A stretch of DNA of 23,860 nt from Gemmatimonadota bacterium (GTDB lineage Bacteria > Gemmatimonadota > Gemmatimonadetes > Gemmatimonadales > GWC2-71-9), in contig JBDHKN010000071.1 of the NCBI GenBank assembly GCA_039586365.1, positions 1 through 23,860 on the forward strand, in the 5' to 3' direction. Under the pieces are notes generated by a model that was not told the origin of the DNA, ran no database searches, and saw nothing but the letters and a program-made list of their open reading frames with translations. Both the position numbers and the translations under genes were made by a program. This document shows, in pieces, positions 1 to 23,860 of this stretch (position 1 is its first letter; each line of letters opens with the position of its first letter).

Positions 1-263
1 GCACTCTGGCGCGCCAGTCCCATTCCCAGCATTTGTGAGACGGTGGATTTGTCCTTTTTGATTATCTCCCCCGCTTTGTCGAACTCACCATTAGCCAACA
101 TGGGTTGAAGCACATTCCACATTTTGCGGTTCACGCTCCGGGTGCGAGCCAAATGAAACCAGCGCTCGACCGTAATGACCACGCCGGCCACGAACACGAG
201 CAGAATGGGGTACATGAACAACCCACCCTTCTGGAAAAACGCCACCATTGAATAAATTTCCAT
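1..263 (-). CDS. MotA/TolQ/ExbB proton-channel family protein, second paralog (partial, runs off the window)
   Basis: Not in the ORF track. Translated by hand from the ATG at 263: MEIYSMVAFFQKGGLFMYPILLVFVAGVVITVERWFHLARTRSVNRKMWNVLQPMLANGEFDKAGEIIKKDKSTVSQMLGMGLARQS. AGGAGG RBS at 270-275. 56/87 residues identical to the ExbB-like protein at 2854..3504. Confidence 0.92.
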   Translation of the reverse strand, partial: MEIYSMVAFFQKGGLFMYPILLVFVAGVVITVERWFHLARTRSVNRKMWNVLQPMLANGEFDKAGEIIKKDKSTVSQMLGMGLARQS

Positions 264-334
264 TACTTTCCTCCTAAAACCTGACAATCAATGACCTCAA
301 TCTTTTGTCTCATGTATTGACTCCATTCTCTTTC

Positions 335-1858
335 CTAGCCGGCGGGCAAGAAGTCGATCGGGTATAGGATGGTGAGCCTCGGGACACCTTCTTTCGGACC
401 AAAGTTGAACTTTTTGATGCGTTCAACAATCTTGGCTACCAGTTCTGGCGAGGCCAGATCTGTAGACTCCACTTCACACATGGACACCACACCACTTGTT
501 TCGATGCTCATTCGCAGCAATAACTTCCCACGCAGTGTTGGGTCCTTGCGCAATTCCTTATTGTAGATCCGATAAAGCGCCGCCTTATACCGATCGAATA
601 CGATCTGGATTTCTTCGTCAGTTCGGCCCGGAGCAGGCCCATCGCTCAGCGGCCTAGACGATTCCTCCAAACCCGCAATGTTGCTTTCCACCCGCACAAA
701 GCCTACGCCGCTGCCGCTGCCGCTTCCACTACCTGTGCCGATACCGCCACCACCGAGCCGGTCGACATTGCCGCTTCCGACGTTGCGACTGACCCCGGCA
801 TAGCCGATTCCACCGCTGGAGCCGCTCTGCGCCTGCATGGCCACCAGCGAGCGCTGAGGCACAGCCTGCCCTGCCACCCGCGGGCTTTGTTTGCTCAGAC
901 GGGCCTCGGTGCCGAGTTTTGCAACGGGAGTTTCGTTCATCAGATCAGCAAAAGTGTCCTTGAACGCCAGAACACCGACGCGTTCCGCTTTTTCCCGCGC
1001 TGCTGACGCTCCTCCGCCGGCATCAGGGACCACTTTCGGCGGTTTATCCGGCTTTTGTTGTTCAGGCCGGGGTTTGGGCTCTTTCTTGACCGATTTCGGC
1101 TCCTCCTTAGGTGGCTTCGGCTCTTCCTTAGGTGGCTTCGGCTCTTCCTTGGGTGGCTTCGGCTCTTCCTTGGGTGGCTTCGACACCGGTTTCGGCATTG
1201 TCGCCGGCCTAGGCGGCTCCTTCTTGACCAGCTTGGCCAATCGTTCCGGAATCTCGACCTCGGCGATGGAGCGATCCGGTATTGGCACTTTAATCAGGGA
1301 AATGAGAGAGCCAAAAACAAGGCATACCAGCAACGCCACGAGAACGGCGCGGCGCAAGCGCCTTTCGCTCTCAGCGTCCTTGGTCCAGGGCATGAGCATC
1401 GCGCGGAAAGGAACGGGCGAAATCTCCCGCTCTATGACGAACTCCTCCTTGCGCCGTTCTTCACGGTCGTATGCATCACGCACCTGTTCGTAGAGGATAT
1501 CCAATTCGTCGATGCATTGGTTGATCTGCTCCTGGAGAGACGCTTGTTTTTCCAGAATCTCGCGGATCTCCCCCTCGAAGTGGGCAATACGGCCCCGCAC
1601 ACGTTTCATATGTCCGGCGGCATCTTTGGCCTCCGGAATTCCTTCCCAAAAGAGTTCATCCGCTTTCAGTTCCCCTAGCTTGTCGAGTGCATTGCAGACG
1701 TCCTGCAAGGCATCAAACCGCTGTTTATCGGAGGAAAACGTTTCGAACTCTGCCTCTACAACGCGCAACTCACCTTCGAGCGCCTCTCGTTTTTGCCGGG
1801 CTTGCTCGATCTGCGCGTTCAGTGGCGCCAATTCCTGTTCTAATAAAGATGTATTCAC
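335..1858 (-). CDS. TonB-like energy transducer with an AgmX/PglI (GltG-type) C-terminal domain
   Basis: 507 aa, GTG start. N-terminal coiled coil, one TM helix (AVLVALLVCLVFGSLISLI), Pro/Lys/Glu-rich linker, Gly-rich segment, and a TonB-C-like end (RTDEEIQIVFDRYKAALYRIYNKELRKDPTLRGKLLLRMSIETSGVV...FNFG...ILYPIDF). Directly follows two ExbD genes. Confidence 0.85.
   Translation of the reverse strand: MNTSLLEQELAPLNAQIEQARQKREALEGELRVVEAEFETFSSDKQRFDALQDVCNALDKLGELKADELFWEGIPEAKDAAGHMKRVRGRIAHFEGEIREILEKQASLQEQINQCIDELDILYEQVRDAYDREERRKEEFVIEREISPVPFRAMLMPWTKDAESERRLRRAVLVALLVCLVFGSLISLIKVPIPDRSIAEVEIPERLAKLVKKEPPRPATMPKPVSKPPKEEPKPPKEEPKPPKEEPKPPKEEPKSVKKEPKPRPEQQKPDKPPKVVPDAGGGASAAREKAERVGVLAFKDTFADLMNETPVAKLGTEARLSKQSPRVAGQAVPQRSLVAMQAQSGSSGGIGYAGVSRNVGSGNVDRLGGGGIGTGSGSGSGSGVGFVRVESNIAGLEESSRPLSDGPAPGRTDEEIQIVFDRYKAALYRIYNKELRKDPTLRGKLLLRMSIETSGVVSMCEVESTDLASPELVAKIVERIKKFNFGPKEGVPRLTILYPIDFLPAG
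1095..1178. repeat. Four tandem 21-bp repeats encoding (KPPKEEP)x4
   Basis: Unit TTCGGCTCYTCCTTRGGTGGC starts at 1095, 1116, 1137 and 1158. Confidence 0.95.
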
Positions 1859-1868
1859 GGCATTCCCA

Positions 1869-2363
1869 TTAGCTTTGGACGGTCTTCTGAATGACGGCGA
1901 GGGAAATCCTTCCGTATCCAGAATCCGTGCAGGTTGACATTATTTTTTTAAGCACTTTGAACGGAATCGTTTTATCAGCGAGGATAGTCACTTCCTTGCT
2001 CTGAGCAACCGTCTTGGTGCTTATACCGATAATATTGCGTTCAAGCTGCTCCAGTCGTTCTGTTATTTCAGTAACCGTCTGAATTCTGTCCTCAAGAAGC
2101 TCAGGGGTGGGGATCACGGCTTCTCCCTGAACCACTACCACCTCGGGGCTGACCATGATTACTACTGTCTCCCTTGGCTTGGTCTCGACAACGGAATCGG
2201 GCAGCTTGATCTGCCTGGGCGTTTCCAGAATATCACTGCCGGATGAGTGGAAAAGCAGAAAGAACACCAGTATGGTAAAAACATCCATCAGCGGTGTCAG
2301 ATTCAAACCTGTAACCTTTCTCTTTCCACGCCCCATCCGTTTCATGCGTCTGCTATTTTTCAT
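1869..2363 (-). CDS. ExbD/TolR family biopolymer transport subunit (AglQ/AglS-like), canonical Asp retained
   Basis: 164 aa. Basic N-tail, TM motif LNLTPLMDVFTILVFFLL (Asp27), and C-terminal ILADKTIPFKVLKKIMSTC...GYGRISLAV typical of ExbD. ATGA overlap with the upstream gene at 2360-2363. Confidence 0.92.
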   Translation of the reverse strand: MKNSRRMKRMGRGKRKVTGLNLTPLMDVFTILVFFLLFHSSGSDILETPRQIKLPDSVVETKPRETVVIMVSPEVVVVQGEAVIPTPELLEDRIQTVTEITERLEQLERNIIGISTKTVAQSKEVTILADKTIPFKVLKKIMSTCTDSGYGRISLAVIQKTVQS

Positions 2364-2851
2364 GGCGCGTCTCCTATGGATATGTCGGGAAAAAGTACCA
2401 TTTTCTGAACCTCTTCGCTCCCTTCCACCTGCACTTCGGCACCACGCACCGCATCCATGACCTGGATCAGATAGTCGTACTCTATTTCCGGTTCCATCAA
2501 GACGGTCGCGTCTTCCTTCTCCGGGTACCGAGCCTTAAGGCGCACAAGCATTTCGGACAACATCTTCATATCGTACTGACCGTCTTTTTTCGGTATTGCG
2601 GCTTCCACGGACGACCCATTGCCAATCTCCAGTCCTGCCTCACGTACAATCACCTCGATAGCGAAATTTGGTGTCTTTGAAGCCGATCCGCCTGCGCTTG
2701 TCGGAACGGTCAACTCCATGATCGTAACGCGCGAAAAGACGGCACTAATGAGTAAAAACGGTATGAGCACCACCATCAGGTTCAAGAAAGTGGTGACCTC
2801 CAGCCCGCGTGTTTCATCCCTTCTCCGTTTATTATGATGTCGTCTGGTCAT
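2360..2851 (-). CDS. ExbD/TolR family biopolymer transport subunit (AglQ/AglS-like), Asn in place of the canonical Asp
   Basis: 163 aa. Basic N-tail, TM motif LEVTTFLNLMVVLIPFLLISAVF, and periplasmic EPEIEYDYLIQVMDAVR matching the ExbD pattern. Starts 2 nt after the ExbB stop. Confidence 0.88.
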   Translation of the reverse strand: MTRRHHNKRRRDETRGLEVTTFLNLMVVLIPFLLISAVFSRVTIMELTVPTSAGGSASKTPNFAIEVIVREAGLEIGNGSSVEAAIPKKDGQYDMKMLSEMLVRLKARYPEKEDATVLMEPEIEYDYLIQVMDAVRGAEVQVEGSEEVQKMVLFPDISIGDAP

Positions 2852-2853
2852 GA

Positions 2854-3504
2854 TCAGCTCCTATCGAATTGGCGCTTGGTGAAATTGGAGATGGTATTCA
2901 GCGCCTTGACCGATGCCATCTCCAGACTGTCCACGATCTGACCTGTGGTCGATGTGAGCTTGGCATGGAGAAGTAGAAGCGGAATCGCGGACATCAGACC
3001 AAATGCCGTGGTGTTCATCGCCACCGAGATGCTCGCGGAGAGCAGATCGGCCTTCTCGGCGGGGTTTGCATTGGCAACCGCGGTAAAGGCCTCGATCAGC
3101 CCCATAATGGTGCCGAGCAGTCCCAGCAGTGTAGCGATATTAGAGAGCAGAGCCACGTACGGCGTGCGCTTCTCCAACTGCGGGATGATCTCCATCATAC
3201 TCTCCTCCATGGCGATTTCGATGTCTTCGCGACGCTGGACAGCACCCTGGCGCGCCAGTCCCATTCCCAGCATTTGCGCCATGCTGCATTTGTCCTTGTT
3301 GACCATTTGCCGGGCCTTGTCGAACTCTCCCTTGACCAGCACTGGATGCAGCAGGTTCCATAATTTGTGGTTCGCGATCCAGATACGGTTCAACTGAATC
3401 CAGCGCTCAAATACGATGGCCATGCCAACCGCAAACACAAGCAGAATGGGGTACATGAACAATCCACCCTTTTGGAAAAACGCCACCATCGAATAGAATT
3501 CCAT
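2854..3504 (-). CDS. MotA/TolQ/ExbB proton-channel family protein (AglR-like)
   Basis: Start moved to the ATG at 3504 (AGGAGG at 3511-3516, and the paralog at 263 starts identically), giving 216 aa. Family motifs GGLFMYPIL...ERW, ATLLGLLGTIMGLIEAF and ISVAMNTTAFGLMSAIP. Confidence 0.95.
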   Translation of the reverse strand: MEFYSMVAFFQKGGLFMYPILLVFAVGMAIVFERWIQLNRIWIANHKLWNLLHPVLVKGEFDKARQMVNKDKCSMAQMLGMGLARQGAVQRREDIEIAMEESMMEIIPQLEKRTPYVALLSNIATLLGLLGTIMGLIEAFTAVANANPAEKADLLSASISVAMNTTAFGLMSAIPLLLLHAKLTSTTGQIVDSLEMASVKALNTISNFTKRQFDRS

Positions 3505-3539
3505 CACTTTCCTCCTTCCTCCCAAACGGGACAACGAAC

Positions 3540-3827
3540 CTATTTCGCGGTGCTGACTCGATAAAATTCAAGCTGCCGCATGAAAACGTCCCGATCCACA
3601 GGTACATCACCCTCGTTCAGCATCATGTCCAAGCTCGTCTCCACACCGATTTCTGAGCTTTTCCAGGGAACGATATAAAGGGACTTCGGGGCTTCATCGT
3701 TACCTACGATGGACATACCGGATAGCTCCTTGGCTTCCGATTCCTTGTCCTTATCCACATCCTGAGCCATGGCCATGACGGCCGGGAACAGGACCACACA
3801 CAGGCATAGAACCAATTTGCGATACAT
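3540..3827 (-). CDS. Small exported protein, positionally GltF-like
   Basis: 95 aa with a Sec signal peptide (MYRKLVLCLCVVLFPAVMAMA|QD) and a strong RBS AAGGAGG at 3832-3838. Lies between the GltE-like TPR gene and the motor genes. Confidence 0.8.
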   Translation of the reverse strand: MYRKLVLCLCVVLFPAVMAMAQDVDKDKESEAKELSGMSIVGNDEAPKSLYIVPWKSSEIGVETSLDMMLNEGDVPVDRDVFMRQLEFYRVSTAK

Positions 3828-3836
3828 AGTCCCTCC

Positions 3837-4529
3837 TTAGTTGCGTCCAAGCCGGGCGCGCAGATCGGCGATCCACAATTGAACCTGTTTATCTTCGGGC
3901 CTGGCCTCGCTGTAAATCTCGTATTGCTCGAGGGCGCAGGCCAGGTCATTCAGATACAGGTCGCAGAGAATCCCGAGATTTCTGTGCACCGGGTAATAAT
4001 CCGGAAAGCGCGCGATCGCCTTCTCATAAATCGCCCGGGCCTCGGCAAATCGTCCGGTTTTGCGATACAACAAACCGTATTCATTACATGCCACCGGGTG
4101 CTCTGGAACCAAGCGCAGCGCTGCTTTAAGATGCTCCTCGGCTTGCTCCAGTTTGCCAATATGCTTATAAGCAATCGCAATATTGATATAGGGCGCCGTG
4201 ACGCCTGGTGACTGCTCGATGACTTTTTCCAGAAGGTTGATGGCTTGGCCATATTCCTGGTCATTCAGCATTGCGACGGCACGCTGGAAGCCTCTGCGAG
4301 AAGCCTCATCCATTTGAGGAGTTTCCATGATAATGAATCCTTCCCGGCCATCCTCGAGTCGCTCCACAGAGAAATTCTTGGCCATGGAGGGTTCCTGAAC
4401 AACCGGGGTCGGCTTGACCTTTCCATCGGTTGCGCACCCGGCAAGAACCGACAGCACCATCGCCAGGATTACGAATCCGACGTACGTTCGTGTTTTTGAC
4501 CACCGTAACATTCTTATATGCATGCCCAT
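3837..4529 (-). CDS. TPR lipoprotein (GltE/AglT-like)
   Basis: Start moved to the ATG at 4529 (GAGGAGG at 4538-4544), giving 230 aa. Lipobox LAGC (Cys32), then TPR helices (PYINIAIAY..GKLEQAEEHLKAAL; ACNEYGLLYRKTGRFAEARAIYEKAI; VHRNLGILCDLYL). Confidence 0.88.
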   Translation of the reverse strand: MGMHIRMLRWSKTRTYVGFVILAMVLSVLAGCATDGKVKPTPVVQEPSMAKNFSVERLEDGREGFIIMETPQMDEASRRGFQRAVAMLNDQEYGQAINLLEKVIEQSPGVTAPYINIAIAYKHIGKLEQAEEHLKAALRLVPEHPVACNEYGLLYRKTGRFAEARAIYEKAIARFPDYYPVHRNLGILCDLYLNDLACALEQYEIYSEARPEDKQVQLWIADLRARLGRN

Positions 4530-4563
4530 ATCGATCGCCTCCTCGTCGCTCGATCCGTACCCG

Positions 4564-7500
4564 TTAGGGGCGGCCTCCTTGGCCGCCCTGGGCAGGCACA
4601 AGGGCCTGCCCCTGCATTTGCGTCTGTTTGCGTGCATCGGTCGGGTGTTCGGTCTGGGCCGGTTCTTCAACCTGTACAGGCTCTGCGGGTTCAACCTCCA
4701 AGACAGACCCAGGTTCCTCGATCTGCACAGGCTCCGTGGGTTCAGCTTCCGCAGCCGCTTCAGGTTCTTCAACCTGCACAGGCTCCGTGGGTTCAGCTTC
4801 TGTGGCTGCCCCAGTTTTTTCAACCTGTGCAGGCTCTGCGGGTTCGACGTCCAAGACAGACCCAGGTTCCTCGATCTGCACAGGCTCCGTGGGTTCAGCT
4901 TCCGCAGCCGCTTCAGGTTCTTCAACCTGTAAAGGCTCTGCGGGCTCGACTTCAATGACAGACCCAGATTCGTCGACTTGTGCGGACCCCGAAGGTTCGG
5001 CCTCCGTAACAGAACCGGGTTCACCGACCTGCCTAGGCTTTGAGGATTCGGACTCCGCAGCTGTAGCCTCTCCGGATTCCGCTTTCGCTGTTGTTGCCGA
5101 CCTGTCAATTTCGAAAATGTAAGTTTCCAGCGAACTGACGATGCTGCTGGTCTCTTCCGGCTTGTCATAGCGGGCAGGTACGAATTCTGCCAATTTCTGC
5201 AGGCTCTTTTCGATCCACACATTGTAGACACCCCGGGGAATCAGCTTGAGGTTGCTCTCGTGGACATCGATGGCCTTCTCTTCGAACGGATAGGCCTGCT
5301 CTTCGATGGCCAGTTCGTACCGCGCCAGCTCCGAGGGACTCAGCCCTTCGGGACGCTCCGACGTCATCAGGGCTTTGCTGAAGTGGGCATAGATCTCGCC
5401 CAGATAGAAGGTCGCGGCGGTAGTGACCTCTCCAAATTCATAATCCATGAGCTGGCTAAATTTCTGCGTCGCCGTCTTCATCAGCTCTCGCTTCTTGCGC
5501 AGATTATCCTCAAAGGGTCTTACCAGCCTGACGGCCACGAACGCGTCATAGCTCGATTCGGCCAGCACCAAGGCGGCTTGCGCGGCAAGAGAGCGGGTCC
5601 GCGGGGTTCGGGTGCTCCCCGCTGAGGCGTCGATCGCGACGATCTTAGCGAGTTCGTTCAGATAGGATTCCCTATCGTTCTGCCCCTTCAGAATCTCGGC
5701 GATTTTGTTGCGCGTCTCTAGGTTGATCTCCACGGGTTGCGAGAAATAATCCACATAGCGCCGGTAAACCTCGAGCGCACGAATGCTGTTGCCATCCTCT
5801 TCATGCAATTCCCCCGCGACCAGGAGGGCCTCCCTTCTGATCTCGTCGTCCTGGGATTCCCGTTCAATGCGTTCATATTCATTGGCGGCCAGAGAGAGCT
5901 GACCGTTTTCCCTGTATACATAGGCCATCTTCTTGGTCACCTCGGGCTGCAACTCGTGCCCCGGGAAGCTGTTGCGGAATCCCACCAGCACCGTAGCGGC
6001 CATCTCCCAATCCTCCAGCTGGATCAAGGCTGCGGCAGCGTCGTATTCGGCGGTCGGCCTGATTTTTGAGGTTGGTGCTGTGCGACCCACCCGCAGGAAG
6101 TGGTCCGCCGCAACCCGATAATCTTCGACGGCATTGGCCTGTTCCCCCTGCTTGTAAATGGATGCCGCAAGGTTGTCGACCAGGTCCTCGTGCGTCTTGT
6201 CTCCTGCAGGCAGCATAGCCAACACATTCAGATAAGCGGTCTCGGCCTCGCTGTATCGCAGGAGCTCATAACAAGAATGACCAGTGACCAACCAGGCCGC
6301 GCGAAGGACATCAACATCGGTGCTGGGGAATACGTCAATGAGCTTGTTCGCGGCCGCCAGTGCCTTTTCATATTCCTTCATACCGTAAAGATCATCCGCG
6401 GCAGCGCCGAGGACGATCGCCGCCTTCTCGTGCTGTGGGAAGGTATCGGCAAACTTCAACGAACTGCGGACAACTTCGCGCTTGACCGTATCCATGTCCT
6501 CCGGCTTGACGGCACCAAGATGCTCCCTGTATGCGTAGACGGCCGCGTAGCCGGCTTCGGAGGATTTTTCGTGGGGCGGGTAGTCATACGCGGTCTTCTC
6601 GTATTCCACGGCCGCTGCGCCGAATGACTGGTTTTCCAGCAGCAGATCCGCCATCTGGTAGTTGATCGTTGGCGATTCTATGTCCATGGGGAACGAGACC
6701 AGGAACTCCCGATACCAGCGCTGAGCCTCTTCGAAATTCGCCGCCTTCTCTTCTGCCTGTCGCGGGTCCCGGTAGCCTGCGTGATAATGATTTGCCAGGT
6801 CGGTCAAGTTGGTTTTCAGGTAACCCAAGACGTCCGGACGATCGCTCGGCTCGAAATACTTCCAGTATTCGGCCTTCAGGCCATAGGTCGTGGCGAATTT
6901 CTTCTTGGAGTCAAGGACCAGACTGGGGAACCCGCCGGCGGCATGAATATCGATAACCCGCATATGGAAGTTCGGCGCCACCTTGTGGAACGGGTTACGG
7001 CTCACGAAGGCGTTGTAGGTTGCACAGGCATCGGCGTAACGACGCTTATCGAAGTAGAATTCGGCGAGGTTGCTGTATACCCTGTCCTCGTAACTGCGCT
7101 TCCCGTGGCGTGAGAAATATTCCATCACAGAATCGGCACCGCCGAGATTGGAGAAACTCAAACTGATGACGCGGAAGGTGTCTTCCATGCGCTTGCGTTC
7201 CGGCTCATCTTCGGTCTGTGCGAAGTCGTATCCGACGGATACCTTGTAATCGAGCAGCGCAATGAATGGATGCAAGGCGTCTTCATAGAGCTCCTGCTTG
7301 TAGAACGTCCAACCCAATTTATACAAGGCGAGGTCGTAGAAGAGGGAACCAATACCAATATCCACGATGCTCGTATAGGCGTCCTCGGCATTGAGGTAGC
7401 GCTTGCGCACAAAGAAGTATTCAGCACGCCGGAACTGCACTTCATCGATATATCGGGACCGAGGGAAGTCGCTGACCATCCGGTCCATAACCTCCATGGC

Positions 7501-8115
7501 CTGCTTAGTCTCTCCCAGTTCCTCGTACGCGCGGGACATCTGGTAGAGTACCTGGTCGTTGCGTTCGTATAAGGGGTAATCATTGAGAAGTTTCGTGTAG
7601 AGCTCGATGGCCTCGCGGGCACTTGCCCTTTCGAGATCATCAACGCCTTCGGCAGGCCCGTCAGCGGCCGCTGCCATACCGGCCACCTGCTGCGTCTGGG
7701 TCGCCCGTCTTTCAAAGTCTGCCTCGGACTCGTCGTGAATCCGAATGTGCGCCGATCCCTGGGCCGACGGCTCACTGGGGGCCGAAGTGCTCCCCGGACG
7801 CGCCGCGCGTTCCGGGGCAGGCAACGCCGGTGCCCGCCAGTCAGGCTCGGCACCCTCGGTGAGGGTGCCGTATTCTCTTTCGATCTTCAGGTCGGCCAAG
7901 CGACGAATGGCCTCGGGCGCCAAGGCTGAGTCCGGAGTCTCCTCCAGAAAGCGCTGATAACTCAGCATCGCTTTCTCGAGCCCGCCTTCGATCTTCTCCT
8001 CCTTGATCTCGATTTGCATATGACGTAACTTGGCAATCGTATCCTTGTTGCTGATCGATTGACAGGCAACAAGCATCACCAGTAGCGCCAATATGAAAAG
8101 TCTGATCCAGTTCAT
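4564..8115 (-). CDS. Large TPR lipoprotein (GltD/AgmU-like) with an acidic repetitive C-terminal tail
   Basis: 1183 aa. Lipobox LVAC (Cys18) and many BamD/YbgF-style TPR units (DQVLYQMSRAY, EVQFRRAEYFF, ALYKLGWTFYKQ, AEYDAAAALI). ATGA overlap with the upstream gene at 8112-8115. Confidence 0.9.
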   Translation of the reverse strand: MNWIRLFILALLVMLVACQSISNKDTIAKLRHMQIEIKEEKIEGGLEKAMLSYQRFLEETPDSALAPEAIRRLADLKIEREYGTLTEGAEPDWRAPALPAPERAARPGSTSAPSEPSAQGSAHIRIHDESEADFERRATQTQQVAGMAAAADGPAEGVDDLERASAREAIELYTKLLNDYPLYERNDQVLYQMSRAYEELGETKQAMEVMDRMVSDFPRSRYIDEVQFRRAEYFFVRKRYLNAEDAYTSIVDIGIGSLFYDLALYKLGWTFYKQELYEDALHPFIALLDYKVSVGYDFAQTEDEPERKRMEDTFRVISLSFSNLGGADSVMEYFSRHGKRSYEDRVYSNLAEFYFDKRRYADACATYNAFVSRNPFHKVAPNFHMRVIDIHAAGGFPSLVLDSKKKFATTYGLKAEYWKYFEPSDRPDVLGYLKTNLTDLANHYHAGYRDPRQAEEKAANFEEAQRWYREFLVSFPMDIESPTINYQMADLLLENQSFGAAAVEYEKTAYDYPPHEKSSEAGYAAVYAYREHLGAVKPEDMDTVKREVVRSSLKFADTFPQHEKAAIVLGAAADDLYGMKEYEKALAAANKLIDVFPSTDVDVLRAAWLVTGHSCYELLRYSEAETAYLNVLAMLPAGDKTHEDLVDNLAASIYKQGEQANAVEDYRVAADHFLRVGRTAPTSKIRPTAEYDAAAALIQLEDWEMAATVLVGFRNSFPGHELQPEVTKKMAYVYRENGQLSLAANEYERIERESQDDEIRREALLVAGELHEEDGNSIRALEVYRRYVDYFSQPVEINLETRNKIAEILKGQNDRESYLNELAKIVAIDASAGSTRTPRTRSLAAQAALVLAESSYDAFVAVRLVRPFEDNLRKKRELMKTATQKFSQLMDYEFGEVTTAATFYLGEIYAHFSKALMTSERPEGLSPSELARYELAIEEQAYPFEEKAIDVHESNLKLIPRGVYNVWIEKSLQKLAEFVPARYDKPEETSSIVSSLETYIFEIDRSATTAKAESGEATAAESESSKPRQVGEPGSVTEAEPSGSAQVDESGSVIEVEPAEPLQVEEPEAAAEAEPTEPVQIEEPGSVLDVEPAEPAQVEKTGAATEAEPTEPVQVEEPEAAAEAEPTEPVQIEEPGSVLEVEPAEPVQVEEPAQTEHPTDARKQTQMQGQALVPAQGGQGGRP
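4648..5055. repeat. Eight degenerate 51-bp (17-aa) tandem repeats, consensus E-A/V-E-P-A/T-E-P-x-Q-V/I-E-E-P-x-x-x-x
   Basis: Units: ESESSKPRQVGEPGSVT, EAEPSGSAQVDESGSVI, EVEPAEPLQVEEPEAAA, EAEPTEPVQIEEPGSVL, DVEPAEPAQVEKTGAAT, EAEPTEPVQVEEPEAAA, EAEPTEPVQIEEPGSVL, EVEPAEPVQVEEPAQTE. 4697-4776 is identical to 4850-4929 (80 bp, 153-bp offset). Confidence 0.93.
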
Positions 8116-10001: not shown

Positions 10002-10005
10002 AAAA

Positions 10006-10521
10006 CTACCTTTCCTTAAGGGTGATGCTTTGGGCAGCCAGCGATATTTCCACGATCTTGGGGCCCACATCCTTGTTGACGTTGAAGTTCTCCGTTTTCC
10101 GGAAATCGGCGCCTCCCGCAGATTTGCCGATAACAGACACCTGCAGATCATGTTCACCGGTTCGGATATTGCCGGTATAAATACGCTGCACCCCCCCCTT
10201 CTGCAGGGCTTCGAGTTCCTTGAAGGTGTAAATGTGATGAGCAACCGGCTTGCCGCCCAAACTGATTTCGACCGAGTCGAGACGGAAGGTCTCGCCACTG
10301 ACCAGTGATACGAATACCGCGACCTGCGTATTGGACGGATATAGCAGCTTCTCTTCAAGCTGATTCAGCTCCGCCGCAATACCCAGAACATCGCTCTTAA
10401 TTTCCTGCACCTGTTCATCCAGGCCCTTGATCTGTTCCTTGGAGACTTCCTGCCCATATGCGGCGAAGCTCAAAACAAACACCGTAATCCCTATGATGAT
10501 CATCCTCAGCCAGCAGAACAT
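10006..10521 (-). CDS. Exported hypothetical protein (short coiled coil plus beta-rich domain)
   Basis: Start moved to the ATG at 10521 (GAGGAGG at 10527-10533), giving 171 aa. Signal peptide ending SFAAYG|QE, coiled coil LDEQVQEIKSDVLGIAAELNQLEEKLL, then alternating beta-strand pattern. Confidence 0.82.
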   Translation of the reverse strand: MFCWLRMIIIGITVFVLSFAAYGQEVSKEQIKGLDEQVQEIKSDVLGIAAELNQLEEKLLYPSNTQVAVFVSLVSGETFRLDSVEISLGGKPVAHHIYTFKELEALQKGGVQRIYTGNIRTGEHDLQVSVIGKSAGGADFRKTENFNVNKDVGPKIVEISLAAQSITLKER

Positions 10522-10548
10522 GTTTACCTCCTCACATCTCAAGAATTC

Positions 10549-10664
10549 ATGGAATGTTGGAATAATGCCTTTACCGGATTTCAGTCGATCTATGAAAAAT
10601 GTAGTTCGCAACTTTATTAACCCCCTATTCCAGTCTTCCAAAATTCCATATTTCTATTTTTCCA
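10549..10664. promoter_or_regulatory. Candidate regulatory element: TTCCA array with 8-bp period plus a 14-bp inverted repeat, in an AT-rich intergenic gap
   Basis: TTCCA at 10628, 10636, 10644 and 10660, TTCTA at 10652; inverted TGGAA at 10550 and 10558. 10549-10562 and 10636-10649 are inverted repeats matching at 13/14. The pattern is seen directly; the function is inferred. Confidence 0.45.
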
Positions 10665-10692
10665 TCCCAATGGGGGCCAAACCCCCAAGTTT

Positions 10693-15813: not shown

Positions 15814-15820
15814 CCTGTTA

Positions 15821-18800
15821 TCACCTGCCGGCAAGTGGAGCACCGCGGCGCCAGAAAACTTCGGTTTCAACGTCCAGCCGGTAGCCGCCATCCGACCGTT
15901 TCCACCGGTTGGTGATTTCCTTTTTCAGCGCGTCGAGGCGCTTACGCACCAGGCCTTCCCGTTCGACATCGGCAAGGTACGACAGACGCAGCACAGACGG
16001 CGCCTTCTTCAACTCTTCTATCAACTGGCTGATCTTGGGAGTCCATTGCAGCCGTAGTTGTGTGGTGTTCGGCTCGAACACGCCATCGGCGATATCGATG
16101 CGCACCACACGGTGGATGGTCGCTCCAAAGTTCAAGCGGAGCATCTTGCCGCGGGTGGCGCGCCTAACACGCGGATTTTCCGTGGTCAAGCGATAGCCGG
16201 TCGGCAGGCTGCGCTCGTCCAGCTTGAGGATGAAATTACTGCCGCGATCCTCGTCGGGCACCGCCGCGCAGGTGATGTGGAATCGACCGTGTTCATCGGT
16301 GGTAACGATCAGACCGCGCACTGTCACCACGCGAACCCCGGCCAGGCCCTTCTCACCCGTATCCTGCTGTCCGTTCAGATTGCGGTCGTCGAACACCTTG
16401 CCGATCACATCGGTGCAATCGAAGTTGGGATCAGGGATAACCCGCACAGTGGCCGTCGCCTCCCCAGAGACCGTGCCGCCGGTGGCTGTGTTGAGCACTA
16501 TCGCCCTGTTGACGTATTCGCCTTCGGAGACGCCGGAACCCACCACCAGGAGCAATTGGATGGTGTAGCGAGTGTCGACCTGCAGCTCGAGCCCATCCCA
16601 GACCAGTTCCCGGCCGTTGATCCGTGGTTCGGCCGGCTTGCCCTCCATACGGGCGGAACCGGCCACGTATTTGAAGCCGGCCGGGAAGCGATCGACGATG
16701 CTAATGTCCTGCAGCGGCACGCCGAACACGTTGGTCACGGTGATTGTGTAGGGCACCAGCTCTCCCCGGCTCACGTTGATCAGGGACGAGGTCTTGGTTA
16801 TGGCCACGGCCCCATCCAGTACCGGATCGATGGGGATGAAATTGTTGAAGATTTGGCTCTCAAAGGGCACGTTCCCATCGCTCAGCAGGAGGTGCAGATG
16901 ATAGATGGTGCCGGCCGTGCGCGGCAGGGCCGACCGAGGTGGCACTACCGCAGAGGCCACAACCTCGCAGTAGTTGGCGGTGGCCGGCACCGCATCGTCC
17001 GGACTGAGGGGGCAGGCGGGAACGGAGAACAGCGCCGTGTTTGCGTCACTTGTGGGCGGAATGATTTGGGACGGCGTGTTTAGATAACCAGTGGCCGGTG
17101 GTGTCACCTCGATGAGATAGGCGCTGCCCGCCGGACAAGACGCATCGCTGAAGTTCAGATCGAACTTATAGAAGCCGTCCAGGGCCGTAACCTGATTCTG
17201 CTGTGCCGGGTCATCGAAGCACTGGCTCGGCAGAGCCGCACCGGTTGCCGCGTTCAGCATCGTCACTCTGGCGCCGGCAACCGCCGTACGGCTAACCGAG
17301 TTGTACACGGCGCCGTTGGGCTGGATGGGCAGGTTCAGGTCCTGCAGATTGTTGCCCGATGCAACGATGATATCGCTGATGCGATGGGGTCCGTCGGTGA
17401 ACACAGAGTAGGCATTACCCAGTGCGGCGGCATTGGGGCCTGCGCCCCGGGCGGTGAAGCGCAGCTCATAAAGGTCCGGCGTGCCCTCGTTGGGCATCAG
17501 GCCGCTGAAGCGGTAAACACCGTTGGCATCGGTGGTCGTCGTGGCCACCAGCAGGCTGTTGCGATACAGGGCCACAGACCAGCCCTCCAGGCGTGTCTCG
17601 GTACTGTCATCTGAGTTGTCCAGATTGGCGTCGTGCCAGACATTGCCGTTGATAGCGGCGGTGCCTGGCGTGCCGCCCACATCGATGGATACGCTGGCCG
17701 AAGCGGGCGAGGCGGGACCGTCCCAGCTTACCTCGCCCCTATTGGTGATGGTGGTTCCTATGGCGACGATGGGGTTGATCTGCACCCGGAACCGCAACTC
17801 GGCACTGGCCCCGGAGGGCAGATCGCCATAGGTGGCGCCATAGTCGGCAGTGAGCTGGTTGCCGGCAAAGGTCACCCCGACGGCGGCCCCGTTGAGGGTG
17901 CCTGATCCGGCCACATAGGTCACCAACGTATTCAGGGGCAACTGCAACGGCGGGGGCAGCTGGTCCAGATCATCGGTGATCACCACGTTGGTGGCCGGCA
18001 CGGTGCTCACGTTGGTCACCCGCACGGTATATTCCAGTTGTCCTCCGGCCAGGGCGGTACCGCCGCCCACCACGGCGACATCTTTGGTCACTGTGAGCAA
18101 CTGGGTGTCGCCCACCACGATGATGGTGGGTTGAAAACCGTTGGAGGGCAGTCCGTCGGCATCGGTCAATTGGGGCGGCAATTCATTGGAGGTAAGGGTG
18201 CCCTGGTTGGTAATGACGGTGCCGGGCAGGACGCCTGTGTTGACCGTGACCTTAAAGGTGACCACGGCGCTCTGGCCGGTGGAGATGATGCCGGGTCCGG
18301 GGTTGTCGCTGGACTGGATGCTCAGGCCGGCGATAAGGGGCGATACACCGCCCGGCAGGGCTGTGCCGTTGAGCTCCAAGGTGTTTCCATTATAGATGGT
18401 GTCGGTGGGCACGTCATCGGTGAGCACCACTCCCGTGGCCGGAATGGCCGCGGTGTTGCTGATCGTAATGGTGTAGACCAGCACGTCGCCCGGATCGACA
18501 ATGCCCGGTGTGCCGTTGTTGTCCTGAAATATGGTCACCGTCTTGTGGGCGTAAAGCAGTGGTACGGCTCCCACCACGTCGCGGGTGGGGTCGTCGGGCA
18601 CCGGTGTGTCGGGATCATCCGAAGGATGGTCGGGCTGCGCCCCGCTGCCCTCGCCGGTACTGCTTACGAAACCCTGGTTCTCGATAACCAGGCCGCTCAC
18701 GGCGTTCGGATCCACCACCACATCAAAAGTTACCGTGACCACGTTGGTTGCCCCCGGCGTGGCATCAGCCCGCATGTATCCGGGTGTGGGATTTTCGCTG

Positions 18801-21800
18801 GCGTTAACCAGGATGCCGGCAACCAGCGGATTGACGCCGGGGCCCGGGTCGGCTACCGCAGTCCCGTTTAGGGTCGTGCTGTTGGCCACGTATGTGGTAT
18901 TGGCCGGCGTTAAGTCCCCCAAGCGGACGTTGACGGCGTCCTCATTGCCGATGTTTTTGATGGTGATGGTGTAGCGCAGGGTGTCTCCGGCCATAAGGAC
19001 CGCCGGATCGCCGGTGAGGTCCTGGGAAGTCTTCCAGATCTCGAAGGCAGGTCCAGAGCTGATCAGGGTGGAGGTTTGGTTACTTGGTTCGGAAGTCAGA
19101 TTGCCTCCAGTCAGCAGTGCCTGATTCAGCACGGTCGTTCCGCTTTGAATCACGGGGGCGAGTGTCGCCTCGAATACAATGGTTACCGAATCGTTGGGAT
19201 CCCCCTGTACAGCCAGTGTCAGGTTACGAACATCAACAATACCCGTGCCGTTGGCACCGCCCGTGGCATTTGTGTTTGTGGTATCGGCATTGGTATCTGA
19301 GACGCTTAGCAACTGCAGGCTGCCGGGAGCAAATTGCGCGTCCAACTCGTCCACCACAAAGGCATTGTTCAAAGGGGCAATACTTTGATTGGTGAGCACG
19401 ATGGTGTACCGGAGCGTATCTCCGGGCTCGGCATTCGTACCCGGATCTTGCCCAGTCGTCACATTGACGACGGACTTCACAATCGAGACCGCGAGCTTGG
19501 TCATCAACGTTACGGTAGCCGGGCCGGTGAAGTAGTCGTTTTCCACCGGGGTACCTGTGCCGTTACGCTCGAAGGCGTTGTCATCGTCCAGCCCGGTCCA
19601 CTGGACCGTGGCGCTGTTGGTCAGCGGCTGCCCCGGCACCACCCCGCCCAGCACCACAACGTCATAGGCCAGGGTGACCTGGGTCCCCTCGACCACGTCG
19701 ATGTCCGCGGTGCCATCGGCCAGGCTCCAGGTCAGGGTCTGCGGGGTGGTACTGCCATCCCCCGTTACCGTCGGGTCGGCGATGGTGTTGCCCGTGCCGT
19801 CCACGCTGGCCGTGCCGCTCTGGTAGGCCAGGCCTAGACTCAAACTGTCTTCAATCAGAAGATCGAACGCATCGGAGAAGTTATCTCCCGCTGCCCCGCC
19901 GTTGGCGGTGAAACTCACGCTGTAGCGCAGGATATCTCCGACATTCGGGGCCACACCAGGGTTACTCACGTTTGCCACGGCTTTGGTGATGGCTAACAGC
20001 GGCTCGACGATGATCACAGCTGCACTGGTGGAGGATGTATCCAACCCTGCGGGAATGTTCGTATAAGTGTAGGAGGCGGTGTTGGTGAAGCTGACACCGG
20101 CATTGGCCTGGTCATTGTTGGCCACACGCGCCGTCAGCGTAATGATGACCTGTTCACCGGCCGGGATGGTGGCGATCCCCAGATTGACATTTCCCGGGGC
20201 GACACTGTTGTCGGTCAGGATCACTGCCGCGCCCCCACCGTCAACCGCAGTAGCGCCGACATACTCCAGCGCGCCGTGCAGGGTGTCGGTCACCACCACA
20301 TTATCGAGTGCAGTGTTCACCGGCGCTGCCGGTACCGTGATCTGGTAGACCACGTTATCACCGATGGTCGCTTCCACCGGTGAGACCAGGGTCTTTATTA
20401 GCTGCTCGTTGTTTACGATATTGGTCATCCACACTTCCGCAACGCTGGTGGACGTGTAGAGACGGCCCGTCTGGGAAAGAGGCAGTGACCGGTATTCAGG
20501 CAGTCGGGCCTGGTTGCTCCAGGTGTTCGAGACCGTGAGATCAGTGTGGAAACCAATGTTGTAATCGATCGTCACGCATTCACCTGGATTGACGAGAGCG
20601 CTATCCAGAAGCGCGATCCGCATCTCCCCACCTCGAGGGGGTGCGGTGTATGTGTAATCGGTGCCCGCCGTCAACGTGTTCGCACCGATTTTGACAACCG
20701 GCGGATTCGCCACAAGGTCGCTCTCGTCAAGCTCCGGTGCAAGTTGGTCCGTAATCACCACACCGTAAGCTGGCGCCAGACCGTCGTTACAGGACGATAG
20801 CTTGAAGTTCATTATATCGGTCGAAATGCTGACCTGGTACGGCTCGGCCGCCGTCCCGGTGCCGAGGCGCCCCGTTCCCAGATCCACTTTGCTGATCGCC
20901 CTCATTTGCGGCTGACGGACCTCGATCGTCTCCGTCGCCGTCAATCGGGTGGGGTAGACGGCCGGATCGCCGCCGGTGTAGGAGAGTCTCGCGGTGTTGG
21001 TGCGCAGAATACTCGTGCTATAGTCCACGCCCGTCGGCGGCGCGTCGGTCACCACCCTGGCGACATACTGAATCACCAGCGGATCAATCGGCGTTCCGTC
21101 ATTGCTCGGCTGGTTGGTTATATCGCCTAACTGCCAGCGCAGGCGTCCCGTATCGCCGGCCGCAGGTTGGGCCGCCAGCGTGTAACTGAAATCCGGACCC
21201 GCAGTGATGGAAAAGCTTTCGAACGCCAGTCCTGCCGGCAGGTCATCCTCCACCACGACGTTTCGCGTGGTGTATTCCTGCAGATTCAGCGTCAGATCGA
21301 AGGTGACGGTATCGCCGACGCGAACGATCGGATCGGTGGTACTGGGCGGTGTCTCGGCATAGGAGTCCTCGACGGCTGATTTGGCAATGGAAGTGTTATC
21401 GAGCGTCCCGACGCTGACAGTGGCAGGACCGTAGCAGTAATCATTGAGTGTATCCGTCGTCGGGCAACCCGCGCCGGTGCGCTCGGCCAAGGATCCGCCG
21501 TCCAGAGAGGTCCAGTCCACAAAGACGCTGTTATTGATGTCTGCGCCCGTGACCGCTTCCACCGACACCTGATAGGTCAGCACCAGCGTCTGGCCGGGGG
21601 GGATGTCGAGCGTAAAGTCGCCGTTCTTTTGCCCCCAAGCGAGTGCACCTGTGGGCAGTGTGGTTGGAGTTACAACGAAACCGACAACATCGATCCCGTT
21701 GATCTGAGCGGTGGCGGAATTGGGAACCAGCGATACGTTCGCCGGCAAAGTGTCGACCACACTGGTGTCAAACGCGGTGGAGTTACCACTATTGGGAATG

Positions 21801-23860
21801 GTGATTAGATATTCGAGGACGTCACCTACTGTGGCTGGATCATTTGGCAGTTTGCCCGCTGGCGTGACAAAACTCACCGCCTTGGTGGCAGTCAGGTCCG
21901 GCTCGACCACGTTCATGTTGCTGGTGCCACCCGCGCCACCAGTCGCTTGCGTCGCGTTGTTGCCGTTCATCCGGTTGTAGGTGTAAGACGCGCTGTTTGC
22001 GAATGACAAACCACTCTGGTTGGTGATGGTGTTTTGCAGCTCTACCGTAATCTCGATAACCGCCTGACCGTTGGCGGGGATATCGATACCGGTCGCCGCG
22101 TCTTCAATGATAAGGTTGGTAGCTGTGCCGGTATTGCTCAGGGCCCAGGCGCCGCCGGATACCACGGTTGCGTTGACAAAGCTCAGGTCTGCGTTGGACA
22201 GGCCCAGATCGTCCAGAATCCGCACATCAAACAGGGGTACGGCGATCGGGATCGCGGGCACTGTGATGCGGTAGTTGAATTGTTCGCCGATTGTCGCGCT
22301 CGCCTGGGTATTCGCCTTCGACACCGGGCCGGGAGTCTGAATGAGCACCTCTGTGGGATCAGCCGGATCACCGGGCGCGGCGATTCCGTTAACGTACGGG
22401 TCATCACTGTAGGCAGTGAGCCCAATAGCAGAGAGAATCGCCTGGTTAGGAACCACGGTACCGTTGGCGAGGTTCGCGGCCAGGTTGATCTCAAACTCGA
22501 ATACGAACTCGCCGCCGACTGGGACATTCAGAGAGGGAGGATCGCCGCTGATTTCCAACAGGCCTGTACCCGAATCAAAGCTGTACGTGGCTCCCGTGGG
22601 TGGAAACGTAACCATGGCGAACGCGGTCAGATCGAAGAGGCTCGGGTCCAGCTGGTCGCTGATCGTGACCCCATTGATCGTCTGGTCAACATTGAAGAGC
22701 CGCACCCGATAGCGCAGCCTGTCACCCGGGGCGGCCGTGGTGGCCGGATTTGCACCACTGGACAGATTCTCGACCGTCTTCTGAAAATAGTAGCCGGCCA
22801 ACGCCGTCGTGACGGTCTCGCTGTCCTGGAAATCCGCCACGCCCGGTGTGCCATCGGTGAGCGTCCTGTCGTATTGGCGGCGGCCGGCAAAGCTGCTGTC
22901 ACCACTGAACCATTGGGTAGCACCGGCAACGTTGGTCAGGGCCAAGCCGTCTTGCGTAATGCCTGCATCGAGCTGAGATTGGTAAGTGACAATCAGGTGC
23001 TGGGAGGGCCCAATCACTGCCTCGGCCGACTCCATGGTCAGGCTGAGCTGGCACGTGGGCGCACCATTATAAGTAACGGAGTAATCGGTGCCCTGCACCA
23101 GCGGACCCGAGATCGAAGTGACGCCATCCGCCGCAAAAATCTCTGCGCTGACCCCCGGCCCTGTGGTAGGGTCATAGTCGCACATGCCTACTGGGATCTC
23201 GTCGAGGATCGTGGTGTTCCAGGCATCGCCACCGCCTGTGTTCTGGACATCGATGGTGAAGGTCGCCGTGTCTCCCAAATTCAAGGCCGTCTCACTGCTC
23301 GTCTTTGTGACCACGAGATCGGGTTCGACGATGGTCATCGGAGCCGAAATCCCATTCTCACCCGGGAGGGGCACGTAGAACACGCCATCTATGTATCTCC
23401 CGAAGGACCACTCGGCGGTATTGGTGAACACCGTCCCTGCCGCGTTTGCCGGCGTGTTGTTCAGAACGACTGTGATCTCGATCACGATCTGCTCCCCGGC
23501 CGGGATGAGGGGAAGGCCACTAAAATCGAACGTGAGCACACCTCCGACATTGGAGAATGTGTGCGGCGCCGGCGTAGGTGGCGTACCACTGCCCCGCCAG
23601 TAGGCGACGTGGCTCACATAGGTGAGGTCCGCACCCGTCGCGTTGAGATCGTCCGTGAGTATGACGCTGTGCAAGTCGTTCAATGACCCAAAGTTATTGA
23701 TGACGGTTCCGGTGGCTGCGTCGTACAGGACTGGGCTCGTCAGCGTGTAGATAAAGGGAACACCGACGGCGGCGAACGGCGCGGGACTCTGCTTATCAAT
23801 TTTTTCTACGGGTATTAAAAGGTTCTGACAGCCTTCCTGGATGGCGGATGAGGAGCCATT
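15821..23860 (-). CDS. Giant DUF11 / isopeptide-domain repeat surface protein with SdrD-B-like domains (putative adhesin; start lies outside the window)
   Basis: The frame stays open from 23860 (NGSSSAIQEGCQNLLIPVEKIDKQSPAPFAAVGVPFIYTL...) through the track's TTG 'start' at 23683, so it is >=2679 aa. 14 modules of type xxK(T/S)...GDxLxYT(I/V)xxxN...xxDxLP...xNxA. SdrD-B-like units INGNVWHDANLDNSDDSTE and VIGKVFDDRNLNGQQDTGE. T/V/G/P/D-rich composition. Confidence 0.92.
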   Translation of the reverse strand, partial: NGSSSAIQEGCQNLLIPVEKIDKQSPAPFAAVGVPFIYTLTSPVLYDAATGTVINNFGSLNDLHSVILTDDLNATGADLTYVSHVAYWRGSGTPPTPAPHTFSNVGGVLTFDFSGLPLIPAGEQIVIEITVVLNNTPANAAGTVFTNTAEWSFGRYIDGVFYVPLPGENGISAPMTIVEPDLVVTKTSSETALNLGDTATFTIDVQNTGGGDAWNTTILDEIPVGMCDYDPTTGPGVSAEIFAADGVTSISGPLVQGTDYSVTYNGAPTCQLSLTMESAEAVIGPSQHLIVTYQSQLDAGITQDGLALTNVAGATQWFSGDSSFAGRRQYDRTLTDGTPGVADFQDSETVTTALAGYYFQKTVENLSSGANPATTAAPGDRLRYRVRLFNVDQTINGVTISDQLDPSLFDLTAFAMVTFPPTGATYSFDSGTGLLEISGDPPSLNVPVGGEFVFEFEINLAANLANGTVVPNQAILSAIGLTAYSDDPYVNGIAAPGDPADPTEVLIQTPGPVSKANTQASATIGEQFNYRITVPAIPIAVPLFDVRILDDLGLSNADLSFVNATVVSGGAWALSNTGTATNLIIEDAATGIDIPANGQAVIEITVELQNTITNQSGLSFANSASYTYNRMNGNNATQATGGAGGTSNMNVVEPDLTATKAVSFVTPAGKLPNDPATVGDVLEYLITIPNSGNSTAFDTSVVDTLPANVSLVPNSATAQINGIDVVGFVVTPTTLPTGALAWGQKNGDFTLDIPPGQTLVLTYQVSVEAVTGADINNSVFVDWTSLDGGSLAERTGAGCPTTDTLNDYCYGPATVSVGTLDNTSIAKSAVEDSYAETPPSTTDPIVRVGDTVTFDLTLNLQEYTTRNVVVEDDLPAGLAFESFSITAGPDFSYTLAAQPAAGDTGRLRWQLGDITNQPSNDGTPIDPLVIQYVARVVTDAPPTGVDYSTSILRTNTARLSYTGGDPAVYPTRLTATETIEVRQPQMRAISKVDLGTGRLGTGTAAEPYQVSISTDIMNFKLSSCNDGLAPAYGVVITDQLAPELDESDLVANPPVVKIGANTLTAGTDYTYTAPPRGGEMRIALLDSALVNPGECVTIDYNIGFHTDLTVSNTWSNQARLPEYRSLPLSQTGRLYTSTSVAEVWMTNIVNNEQLIKTLVSPVEATIGDNVVYQITVPAAPVNTALDNVVVTDTLHGALEYVGATAVDGGGAAVILTDNSVAPGNVNLGIATIPAGEQVIITLTARVANNDQANAGVSFTNTASYTYTNIPAGLDTSSTSAAVIIVEPLLAITKAVANVSNPGVAPNVGDILRYSVSFTANGGAAGDNFSDAFDLLIEDSLSLGLAYQSGTASVDGTGNTIADPTVTGDGSTTPQTLTWSLADGTADIDVVEGTQVTLAYDVVVLGGVVPGQPLTNSATVQWTGLDDDNAFERNGTGTPVENDYFTGPATVTLMTKLAVSIVKSVVNVTTGQDPGTNAEPGDTLRYTIVLTNQSIAPLNNAFVVDELDAQFAPGSLQLLSVSDTNADTTNTNATGGANGTGIVDVRNLTLAVQGDPNDSVTIVFEATLAPVIQSGTTVLNQALLTGGNLTSEPSNQTSTLISSGPAFEIWKTSQDLTGDPAVLMAGDTLRYTITIKNIGNEDAVNVRLGDLTPANTTYVANSTTLNGTAVADPGPGVNPLVAGILVNASENPTPGYMRADATPGATNVVTVTFDVVVDPNAVSGLVIENQGFVSSTGEGSGAQPDHPSDDPDTPVPDDPTRDVVGAVPLLYAHKTVTIFQDNNGTPGIVDPGDVLVYTITISNTAAIPATGVVLTDDVPTDTIYNGNTLELNGTALPGGVSPLIAGLSIQSSDNPGPGIISTGQSAVVTFKVTVNTGVLPGTVITNQGTLTSNELPPQLTDADGLPSNGFQPTIIVVGDTQLLTVTKDVAVVGGGTALAGGQLEYTVRVTNVSTVPATNVVITDDLDQLPPPLQLPLNTLVTYVAGSGTLNGAAVGVTFAGNQLTADYGATYGDLPSGASAELRFRVQINPIVAIGTTITNRGEVSWDGPASPASASVSIDVGGTPGTAAINGNVWHDANLDNSDDSTETRLEGWSVALYRNSLLVATTTTDANGVYRFSGLMPNEGTPDLYELRFTARGAGPNAAALGNAYSVFTDGPHRISDIIVASGNNLQDLNLPIQPNGAVYNSVSRTAVAGARVTMLNAATGAALPSQCFDDPAQQNQVTALDGFYKFDLNFSDASCPAGSAYLIEVTPPATGYLNTPSQIIPPTSDANTALFSVPACPLSPDDAVPATANYCEVVASAVVPPRSALPRTAGTIYHLHLLLSDGNVPFESQIFNNFIPIDPVLDGAVAITKTSSLINVSRGELVPYTITVTNVFGVPLQDISIVDRFPAGFKYVAGSARMEGKPAEPRINGRELVWDGLELQVDTRYTIQLLLVVGSGVSEGEYVNRAIVLNTATGGTVSGEATATVRVIPDPNFDCTDVIGKVFDDRNLNGQQDTGEKGLAGVRVVTVRGLIVTTDEHGRFHITCAAVPDEDRGSNFILKLDERSLPTGYRLTTENPRVRRATRGKMLRLNFGATIHRVVRIDIADGVFEPNTTQLRLQWTPKISQLIEELKKAPSVLRLSYLADVEREGLVRKRLDALKKEITNRWKRSDGGYRLDVETEVFWRRGAPLAGR

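Follow-up and report, generated by a model that had tools for sequence, protein, structure and literature searches.

The window analysed here is one entire contig (C119; 23,860 nt) of a genome bin assigned to Gemmatimonadota (GCA_039586365.1, contig JBDHKN010000071.1). It carries a gene cluster whose outer half is an SprA-related translocon, which we did not find described in the literature searched (mostly listings), and whose inner half is a motor of the Agl-Glt class. Since an SprA-related pore, a gliding-type motor and a giant fibre protein stand together in one conserved cluster, the cluster probably exports the fibre and holds it on the cell surface. Our preferred reading, which we hold with moderate confidence, is ion-driven export and surface display of a tethered, isopeptide-stabilised giant fibre. 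It starts from four direct findings: the gene set, its linkage, a barrel of ~40 strands related to SprA by descent, and naturally occurring giant-barrel fusions. The function, and the physical coupling of the motor to the giant-barrel pair, are what we infer.

The cluster comprises 12 open reading frames (ORFs), all on the minus strand, the first and last of which are truncated by the contig ends. In order of transcription they encode the giant DUF11 protein, an OmpA/barrel protein of 1,706 amino acids (aa), a 171-aa protein, three tetratricopeptide repeat (TPR) proteins of 629, 1,183 and 230 aa, a 95-aa protein, ExbB, two ExbD proteins, a TonB-like protein and a second ExbB, separated by 7, 171, 4, -4, 34, 9, 35, 2, -4, 10 and 71 nt. 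A sequence-only reading of the window had described 12 co-oriented genes with two ATGA overlaps and gaps of 2, 4, 7, 9 and 10 nt, which agrees with the ORF coordinates. It had also proposed that an ExbB/ExbD/ExbD motor, a TonB-like transducer, TPR proteins, an OmpA-barrel and giant repeats together span the envelope, and the domain calls bear this out (DUF11/isopeptide repeats, OmpA, three TPR proteins, two of them with lipoboxes, MotA_ExbB, two ExbD and TonB-like). Family searches likewise confirmed that no TonB-dependent receptor, TolB or Pal is present among the window proteins. The clustering of these genes greatly exceeds chance expectation.

The AlphaFold2 (AF2) model of the barrel domain has about 40 strands (38-42 in the DSSP list), with a predicted local distance difference test score of 82.9 and a predicted template modelling score of 0.75. 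[quoted passage not shown] Homology can be detected only in the N-terminal third, where it covers the N-terminal strands plus one inserted beta-domain. These comparisons identify the barrel as a distant SprA homologue at the level of the superfamily. The parallel to T9SS, which had been drawn as a conceptual one, is thus stronger than first stated, because over its N-terminal third the barrel is homologous to SprA rather than only analogous. No Pfam or NCBIfam model matched the barrel, including TIGR04189 and PF14349; on TIGR04189, genuine SprA proteins reach 481 bits in one case and 845 bits in another. Clustering of the barrel's relatives (E<=1e-10) at 50% identity gives at least 2,549 groups. 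We did not find the family described in the literature searched, and it is absent from the accessible parts of PMC12204202 and PMC12505986.

The likeness to T9SS (PDB 6H3I) extends to a very large single-chain barrel, a giant cargo made of repeats, and a TPR lipoprotein that is accompanied by an ion motor in the inner membrane. SprA, however, has ~2,100-2,400 aa, whereas the window's barrel has ~900 aa, lacks most of the large SprA inserts and is preceded by OmpA domains. The motor is of the Exb/Tol type, and PorV and GldM were each found in 0/5 linked genomes, a search in which no GldM positive control was detected and the PorV control was sub-threshold only. The window's cargo ends in an alpha/beta domain rather than in a T9SS C-terminal domain (CTD); no T9SS CTD family matched the giant or its last 119 aa.

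The giant's tail and the barrel occur in a single chain in 33 of 150 barrel representatives. These include exact fusions of both window genes at 51-54% identity (P0244, P0249); some fusions are possibly assembly read-throughs. Another, widespread fused family of ~2,000-2,280 aa (L196-L213) is made up of a DUF11-SdrD tail, OmpA and the barrel. Such architectures indicate that giant and barrel are one unit. In the fusions, passenger and barrel are separated by OmpA or linker domains, so the C-terminal end of the passenger would be periplasmic. The order of passenger, linker and barrel in the fused relatives is also that of type V secretion, whose barrels have 12 or 16 strands. The window differs in its separate passenger and barrel genes, a barrel about three times larger, periplasmic OmpA domains between passenger and barrel and, in its clade, a dedicated ion motor; no window protein matched the autotransporter (PF03797) or Omp85/POTRA families. 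Genes of the L196-L213 family often have a DUF11 gene of ~400 aa in front of them and other large genes behind them, a neighbourhood that suggests multi-subunit fibres.

In close relatives the full-length giant has 3,300-3,470 aa and a Sec-type signal-like N-terminus. The window's giant scores 226 bits on TIGR04226 (cut-off 30) and shows 14 repeats followed by a conserved ~640-aa tail (SdrD_B, an unknown domain, DUF11, SdrD_B and a terminal domain). A Lys/Asp/Asn pattern was found in the 14 repeats, the Asp of one being caught by only one of two scans, and the repeats are predicted to form isopeptide bonds. The terminal domain is probably a degenerate OmpA-like domain. It aligns with the window's own OmpA domains at an hhalign probability of 0.5% only, and a distant giant (L180) terminates in a true Pfam OmpA domain. 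At the giant's extreme C-terminus (window 15821-15860), 49 of 51 close loci have a Trp-x-x-Gly motif. Gammaproteobacterial giants that are linked to the motor carry it as well, and motor-less ones do not; it is a candidate site of contact with the motor block, or just a mark of the clade.

The inner half had been read as Agl-Glt-like, and its order, sizes and domains do match the published core complex, which consists of GltC, D, E, G, AglR, Q, S plus one more gene and whose function in non-gliding bacteria is unknown (Luciano 2011, PMC3169522, accessible part). The same set of seven genes forms one operon there, and the Geobacter cluster Gura_3077-3070 has the same order and sizes (629, 1,108, 240, gap, 211, 166, 166 and 484 aa), as has GM21_0438-0445. 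Geobacteraceae loci are 45-77% identical to the window, gene by gene. Further shared features are a heterodimeric ExbD pair and a TonB-like transducer with an AgmX/PglI C-terminus. Direct profile support comes from the transducer (58.4 bits on AgmX/PglI, NF033768, cut-off 40; gliding_GltG, E 5.8e-9, below cut-off) and weakly from the GltE-like protein, whereas the GltC and GltD assignments rest on position, size and TPR content, with no GltC or GltD model among the matches listed for the window proteins. The 95-aa gene is probably Luciano's 'additional gene', because it fills the locus number skipped between gltE and aglR in the table of that paper; a GltF-like role for its product is a guess. 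The 171-aa gene leads core clusters of both types. The features of the window are collected in Table 1.

Table 1. Genes and domains of the window, in order of transcription, with the basis for each assignment
Feature	Position	Strand	Basis or remarks
Giant DUF11/Cna-B-like repeat protein	15821..23860	-	5' end cut; >2,679 aa visible
C-terminal domain of giant, proposed periplasmic retention anchor	15821..16123	-	hhalign
Outer-membrane OmpA/barrel protein, 1,706 aa	10693..15813	-	Signal peptide, N-terminal motif, OmpA x3, ~265-aa unassigned region, ~900-aa barrel
Three OmpA-like domains (peptidoglycan-binding type)	14209..15528	-	Residues 96-219, 259-385, 407-535
Barrel domain, distant SprA/Sov homologue	10696..13401	-	AF2 model, profile comparison
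Clearest SprA-homologous segment	12409..12741	-	Barrel residues ~220-331 vs SprA-orthologue residues ~668-775
Exported protein, 171 aa, no known family	10006..10521	-	Coiled coil + beta-rich half, by eye
TPR protein, 629 aa, GltC-like	8112..10001	-	Position and size; Gura_3077 = 629 aa
TPR lipoprotein, 1,183 aa, GltD-like	4564..8115	-	Position and size; lipobox
TPR lipoprotein, 230 aa, GltE-like	3837..4529	-	gliding_GltE E 5.6e-5, weak, below cut-off
Exported protein, 95 aa	3540..3827	-	Position; no family match
ExbB/AglR-like motor subunit	2854..3504	-	Both channel Thr kept; Val at usual Glu position; extra Thr
ExbD/AglQ-like subunit	2360..2851	-	Asn replaces transmembrane Asp
ExbD/AglS-like subunit	1869..2363	-	Asp kept
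GltG/TonB-like transducer	335..1858	-	Coiled coil (cytoplasmic), one transmembrane helix, Pro-rich linker, AgmX/PglI C-terminal domain
Second exbB paralogue, cut by contig end	3..263	-	65% identical to first ExbB

Linkage was assessed in the best 80 of 537 loci retrieved with the 171-aa protein. Being related to one another (57-88% identity), these close loci are less independent than the counts suggest. The barrel lies directly upstream in 67 of the 69 with enough flank, the giant's tail is present in 45/45 and the core in 46/46 of those assessed; in one of the two barrel exceptions, the giant-barrel pair is divergently transcribed. A broader sample of 400 genomes covered the class centred on an Acidiferrobacterales record. 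There, 76 genomes have a GltC-like gene and 47 a barrel-family member (26 both, 21 barrel only, 50 core only). The closest GltC-like genomes, which are gammaproteobacterial, all carry a barrel of 54-66% identity on the same contig, 12-26 kb away (8/8), mostly in the order core-giant-barrel, rearranged relative to the window. The linkage of core and pair thus survives reordering and inversion. Among 251 genomes of the phylum of a Desulfosarcina record, two have the core, both with a close barrel adjacent, and 17 have a barrel-family member.

We inspected 40 core loci of the 400-genome sample, the 8 closest and 32 distant ones. No giant or barrel was found at the 32 distant loci, where small barrels like the OMP_myx_plus pair occur in 20 and a large HZS-alpha/LamG-type protein in 22; both are absent from the 8 closest loci. 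Because the small barrels are found at 0/8 core loci in the window's clade against 20/32 distant ones, the giant barrel takes that slot. The proposal that the outer platform is replaced by the OmpA-barrel and the DUF11 giant holds in this clade. The expected co-occurrence of motor and pair is tight there, across phyla and despite rearrangement, and fails as a general rule (50 of 76 core genomes lack the barrel): two modules that stand alone elsewhere are tightly joined in the window's clade.

The mechanism that we propose would run as follows. The giant and the barrel protein would cross the inner membrane via Sec, the barrel would insert into the outer membrane and its OmpA domains would pin it to peptidoglycan. 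Folded, isopeptide-locked immunoglobulin-like domains of the giant would exit through the wide lumen of the barrel, while its C-terminal OmpA-like domain would stay in the periplasm as a stopper, leaving a tethered fibre of roughly 20 domains. The ExbB/ExbD/ExbD motor would pull on the periplasmic side of the barrel, via the TonB-like transducer and the GltC/D/E-like scaffold, and so gate the pore or ratchet the fibre. As relatives carry the pair without the motor, the motor would be an accessory energiser gained by one clade. The role of the fibre is likely to be adhesion or aggregation.

Several observations weigh against this reading, besides the kinship of the close loci. In the 400-genome sample, 21 of the 47 barrel genomes have no GltC-like match, so this motor need not accompany the pair. 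AgmX/PglI was above cut-off in 0/9 barrel genomes without a GltC-like match, a search whose positive control passed, and 15 of the 17 Desulfobacterota genomes with a barrel-family member also have no GltC-like match. On the structural side, the match to 6h3i_A has a root-mean-square deviation (rmsd) of 13.3 and a Z tied with small porins, SprA is not among the top Foldseek matches listed, and its homology is not detectable over the C-terminal half of the barrel (1.4%). The giant's tail can be called OmpA-like only weakly (hhalign probability 24% against the OmpA set, E 8e-4). Finally, a pal gene after the operon in some relatives, detailed below, hints at a Tol-like role.

The residues of the motor bear on its coupling ion. 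We scored 82 rows (loci L013-L090 and L121-L166, two loci counted twice) and found three covarying sites, ExbB 161, ExbB 165 and first-ExbD 24. They read Val/Thr/Asn in 62 rows and Glu/Cys/Asp in 14, the latter mostly in Nitrospirota and Geobacteraceae records; six fall under 'other', where a few rows had the wrong ExbB/ExbD paralogue picked. The Asp of the second ExbD is kept wherever scored. The two channel Thr are also present in H+-driven ExbB. The window's motor is of the Val/Thr/Asn type, with one Asp-bearing ExbD and a Thr-Thr pair that recalls T185/T186 of PomA in a sodium stator (PMC6677748, accessible part). By this analogy, coupling of window-type motors to sodium is a tentative suggestion, and a sodium versus proton switch between the two residue types is possible.

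More broadly, it is a reasonable possibility, though short of probable, that these genes represent an unrecognised class of protein secretion, based on a pared-down translocon of the SprA family through which giant folded fibres are exported and by which they are kept. The class would be widespread in Proteobacteria, Desulfobacterota and Nitrospirota in fused (autotransporter-like), two-gene and motor-driven forms, with the core complex as energiser of the motor-driven form; the motor of most members would have only one ExbD with the Asp and could be driven by sodium.

The best surviving alternative is that the pair exports the fibre by itself and the motor moves or tugs the displayed fibre, in surface creeping, in retraction or in distributing fibres across the cell, much as Agl-Glt and Agl-Nfs do with their cargo. 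Export could do without the motor, given the existence of motor-less pairs; isopeptide-type repeats suit load-bearing; and the Agl motor is described as driving two different outer platforms (PMC3858216, accessible part). We nevertheless consider this unlikely, as three peptidoglycan-binding domains should immobilise the barrel and the core alone is argued not to drive motility (Luciano 2011, PMC3169522). Wartel 2013 treats the core as a standalone, possibly basal transport machine. The transducer also has no FHA match, and among five linked genomes neither GltJ (0/5; GltI, MglA and AglZ were not searched) nor OMP_myx_plus, representing GltA/B/H-type barrels, exceeded its cut-off (0/5), while a neighbour of a distant core passes the latter. 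The window itself contains no GltA/B/H, GltK or CglB, and in this it differs from Agl-Glt, which has a GltA/B/H/K-CglB platform where the window has its SprA-related ~40-strand barrel and giant fibre; one window ExbD, moreover, is without Asp. The accessible text of Luciano 2011 makes no mention of giant or barrel partners of the core. Surface movement, one of the functions offered by the sequence-only reading, thus finds no support.

Tol-Pal-like tethering of the envelope, with the motor holding or remodelling the outer membrane through OmpA/Pal-type anchors and the giant serving as a periplasmic or passively anchored scaffold, appears improbable. The pair does contain four OmpA-like domains, and Ton and Tol-Pal systems share the ExbB/ExbD motor family, a single-pass proline-rich transducer and OmpA/Pal-type anchors with the window. 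A true pal follows the second exbB in five of ten long-contig relatives, and all three tested exceed the TIGR02802 cut-off. However, pal is not there in the other five and TolB is missing from the window (tolB was not searched genome-wide), and an SprA-sized pore with repeat regions varying from 2,000 to 4,400 aa fits a surface protein better. The window also differs from Ton and Tol-Pal in its large TPR scaffold, its two different ExbD proteins and a transducer whose transmembrane helix has no His motif.

Import of the TonB kind would have the ~265-aa region before the barrel serve as a plug pulled by the transducer, with macromolecules captured by the fibre being taken in. Here the TonB-like C-terminal domain of the transducer and the unassigned periplasmic region, which had no match in an atlas search, can be cited, as can a Fibrobacter TPR-exbB-exbD-exbD-tonB cluster, upregulated on cellulose and proposed as a cellodextrin importer (PMC6851124), that would correspond to the core complex. 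The top Foldseek matches listed for the barrel are TonB-dependent receptors, but at a template modelling score of about 0.17 and an rmsd of about 25 these reflect generic barrel likeness, whereas its sequence homology suggests that the barrel is an exporter. In 12 giants of full or nearly full length, no domain for catalysis or sugar binding was detected, and we give import only a slim chance. Slimmer still is the chance that two independent modules merely travel together on one transferred island, co-regulated and not physically coupled: each block occurs alone, 171 nt separate them in the window and distances correlate at 0.81 between blocks versus 0.95 within the core, but the linkage withstands rearrangement and the clade's cores lack the small-barrel partners of distant ones.

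If export and display is correct, the window's cluster assigns a cargo and a pore to the Agl-Glt core, whose role in non-gliding bacteria has been an open question since 2011, and allows that question to be put to the test. According to PMC12398890 (accessible part), SprA occurs in T9SS alone and T9SS only in the FCB group, so a compact SprA relative would extend the translocon family far beyond T9SS and would offer a minimal model for the passage of folded proteins through the outer membrane. The cluster also suggests that sediment bacteria have an abundant adhesion system. Should the broader secretion class be real, the core complex would gain its long-missing function, and parts of T9SS and of myxobacterial gliding would be interchangeable modules.

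The contig may be foreign to its bin. A GltC-like gene was found in 0/100 other genomes of the bin's phylum and a close barrel in 1/60 relatives; the tetranucleotide fit of the contig to the bin is the 19th lowest among 132 contigs (r 0.896), with a GC content of 0.571 versus 0.602; and the nearest relatives of the 171-aa protein (85-88%) belong to records titled Chromatiales, Alphaproteobacteria and Desulfobacterales. On account of this scarcity, the atypical tetranucleotides and relatives in other groups, the contig was either recently acquired or mis-binned. True SprA is present in 82 of 101 genomes of the phylum (a tally that takes in one unpublished genome), and the bin itself codes for an orthologue (L195:8966-15370, G000 contig C125; TIGR04189, 481 bits). 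The datasets that contain this DNA at a share above 0.2 are marine or other sediment metagenomes from three studies. The gene cluster itself is genuine, as it is found on contigs of 0.7-1.5 Mb in several phyla.

Some smaller features of the cores deserve mention. The C-terminus of the GltD-like protein (window 4564-5100) consists of ~180 aa of acidic Pro/Glu-rich tandem repeats that vary in length among relatives. The second exbB lies 3' of the transducer in 9/10 long-contig relatives and is frameshifted in one assembly (L244-L253); the two paralogues may possibly form a mixed ExbB pentamer. TlpA, DUF3570 and ApbE are often found alongside distant cores and, like the small barrels, are absent from the 8 closest loci. 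Most gammaproteobacterial cores adjoin another conserved and apparently undescribed module (L129-L160, e.g. L142:4647-11250), which comprises a large HZS-alpha/LamG/haem-motif protein, an SH3-barrel protein, an OMP_myx_plus barrel, TlpA, DUF4266, DUF3570 and ApbE.

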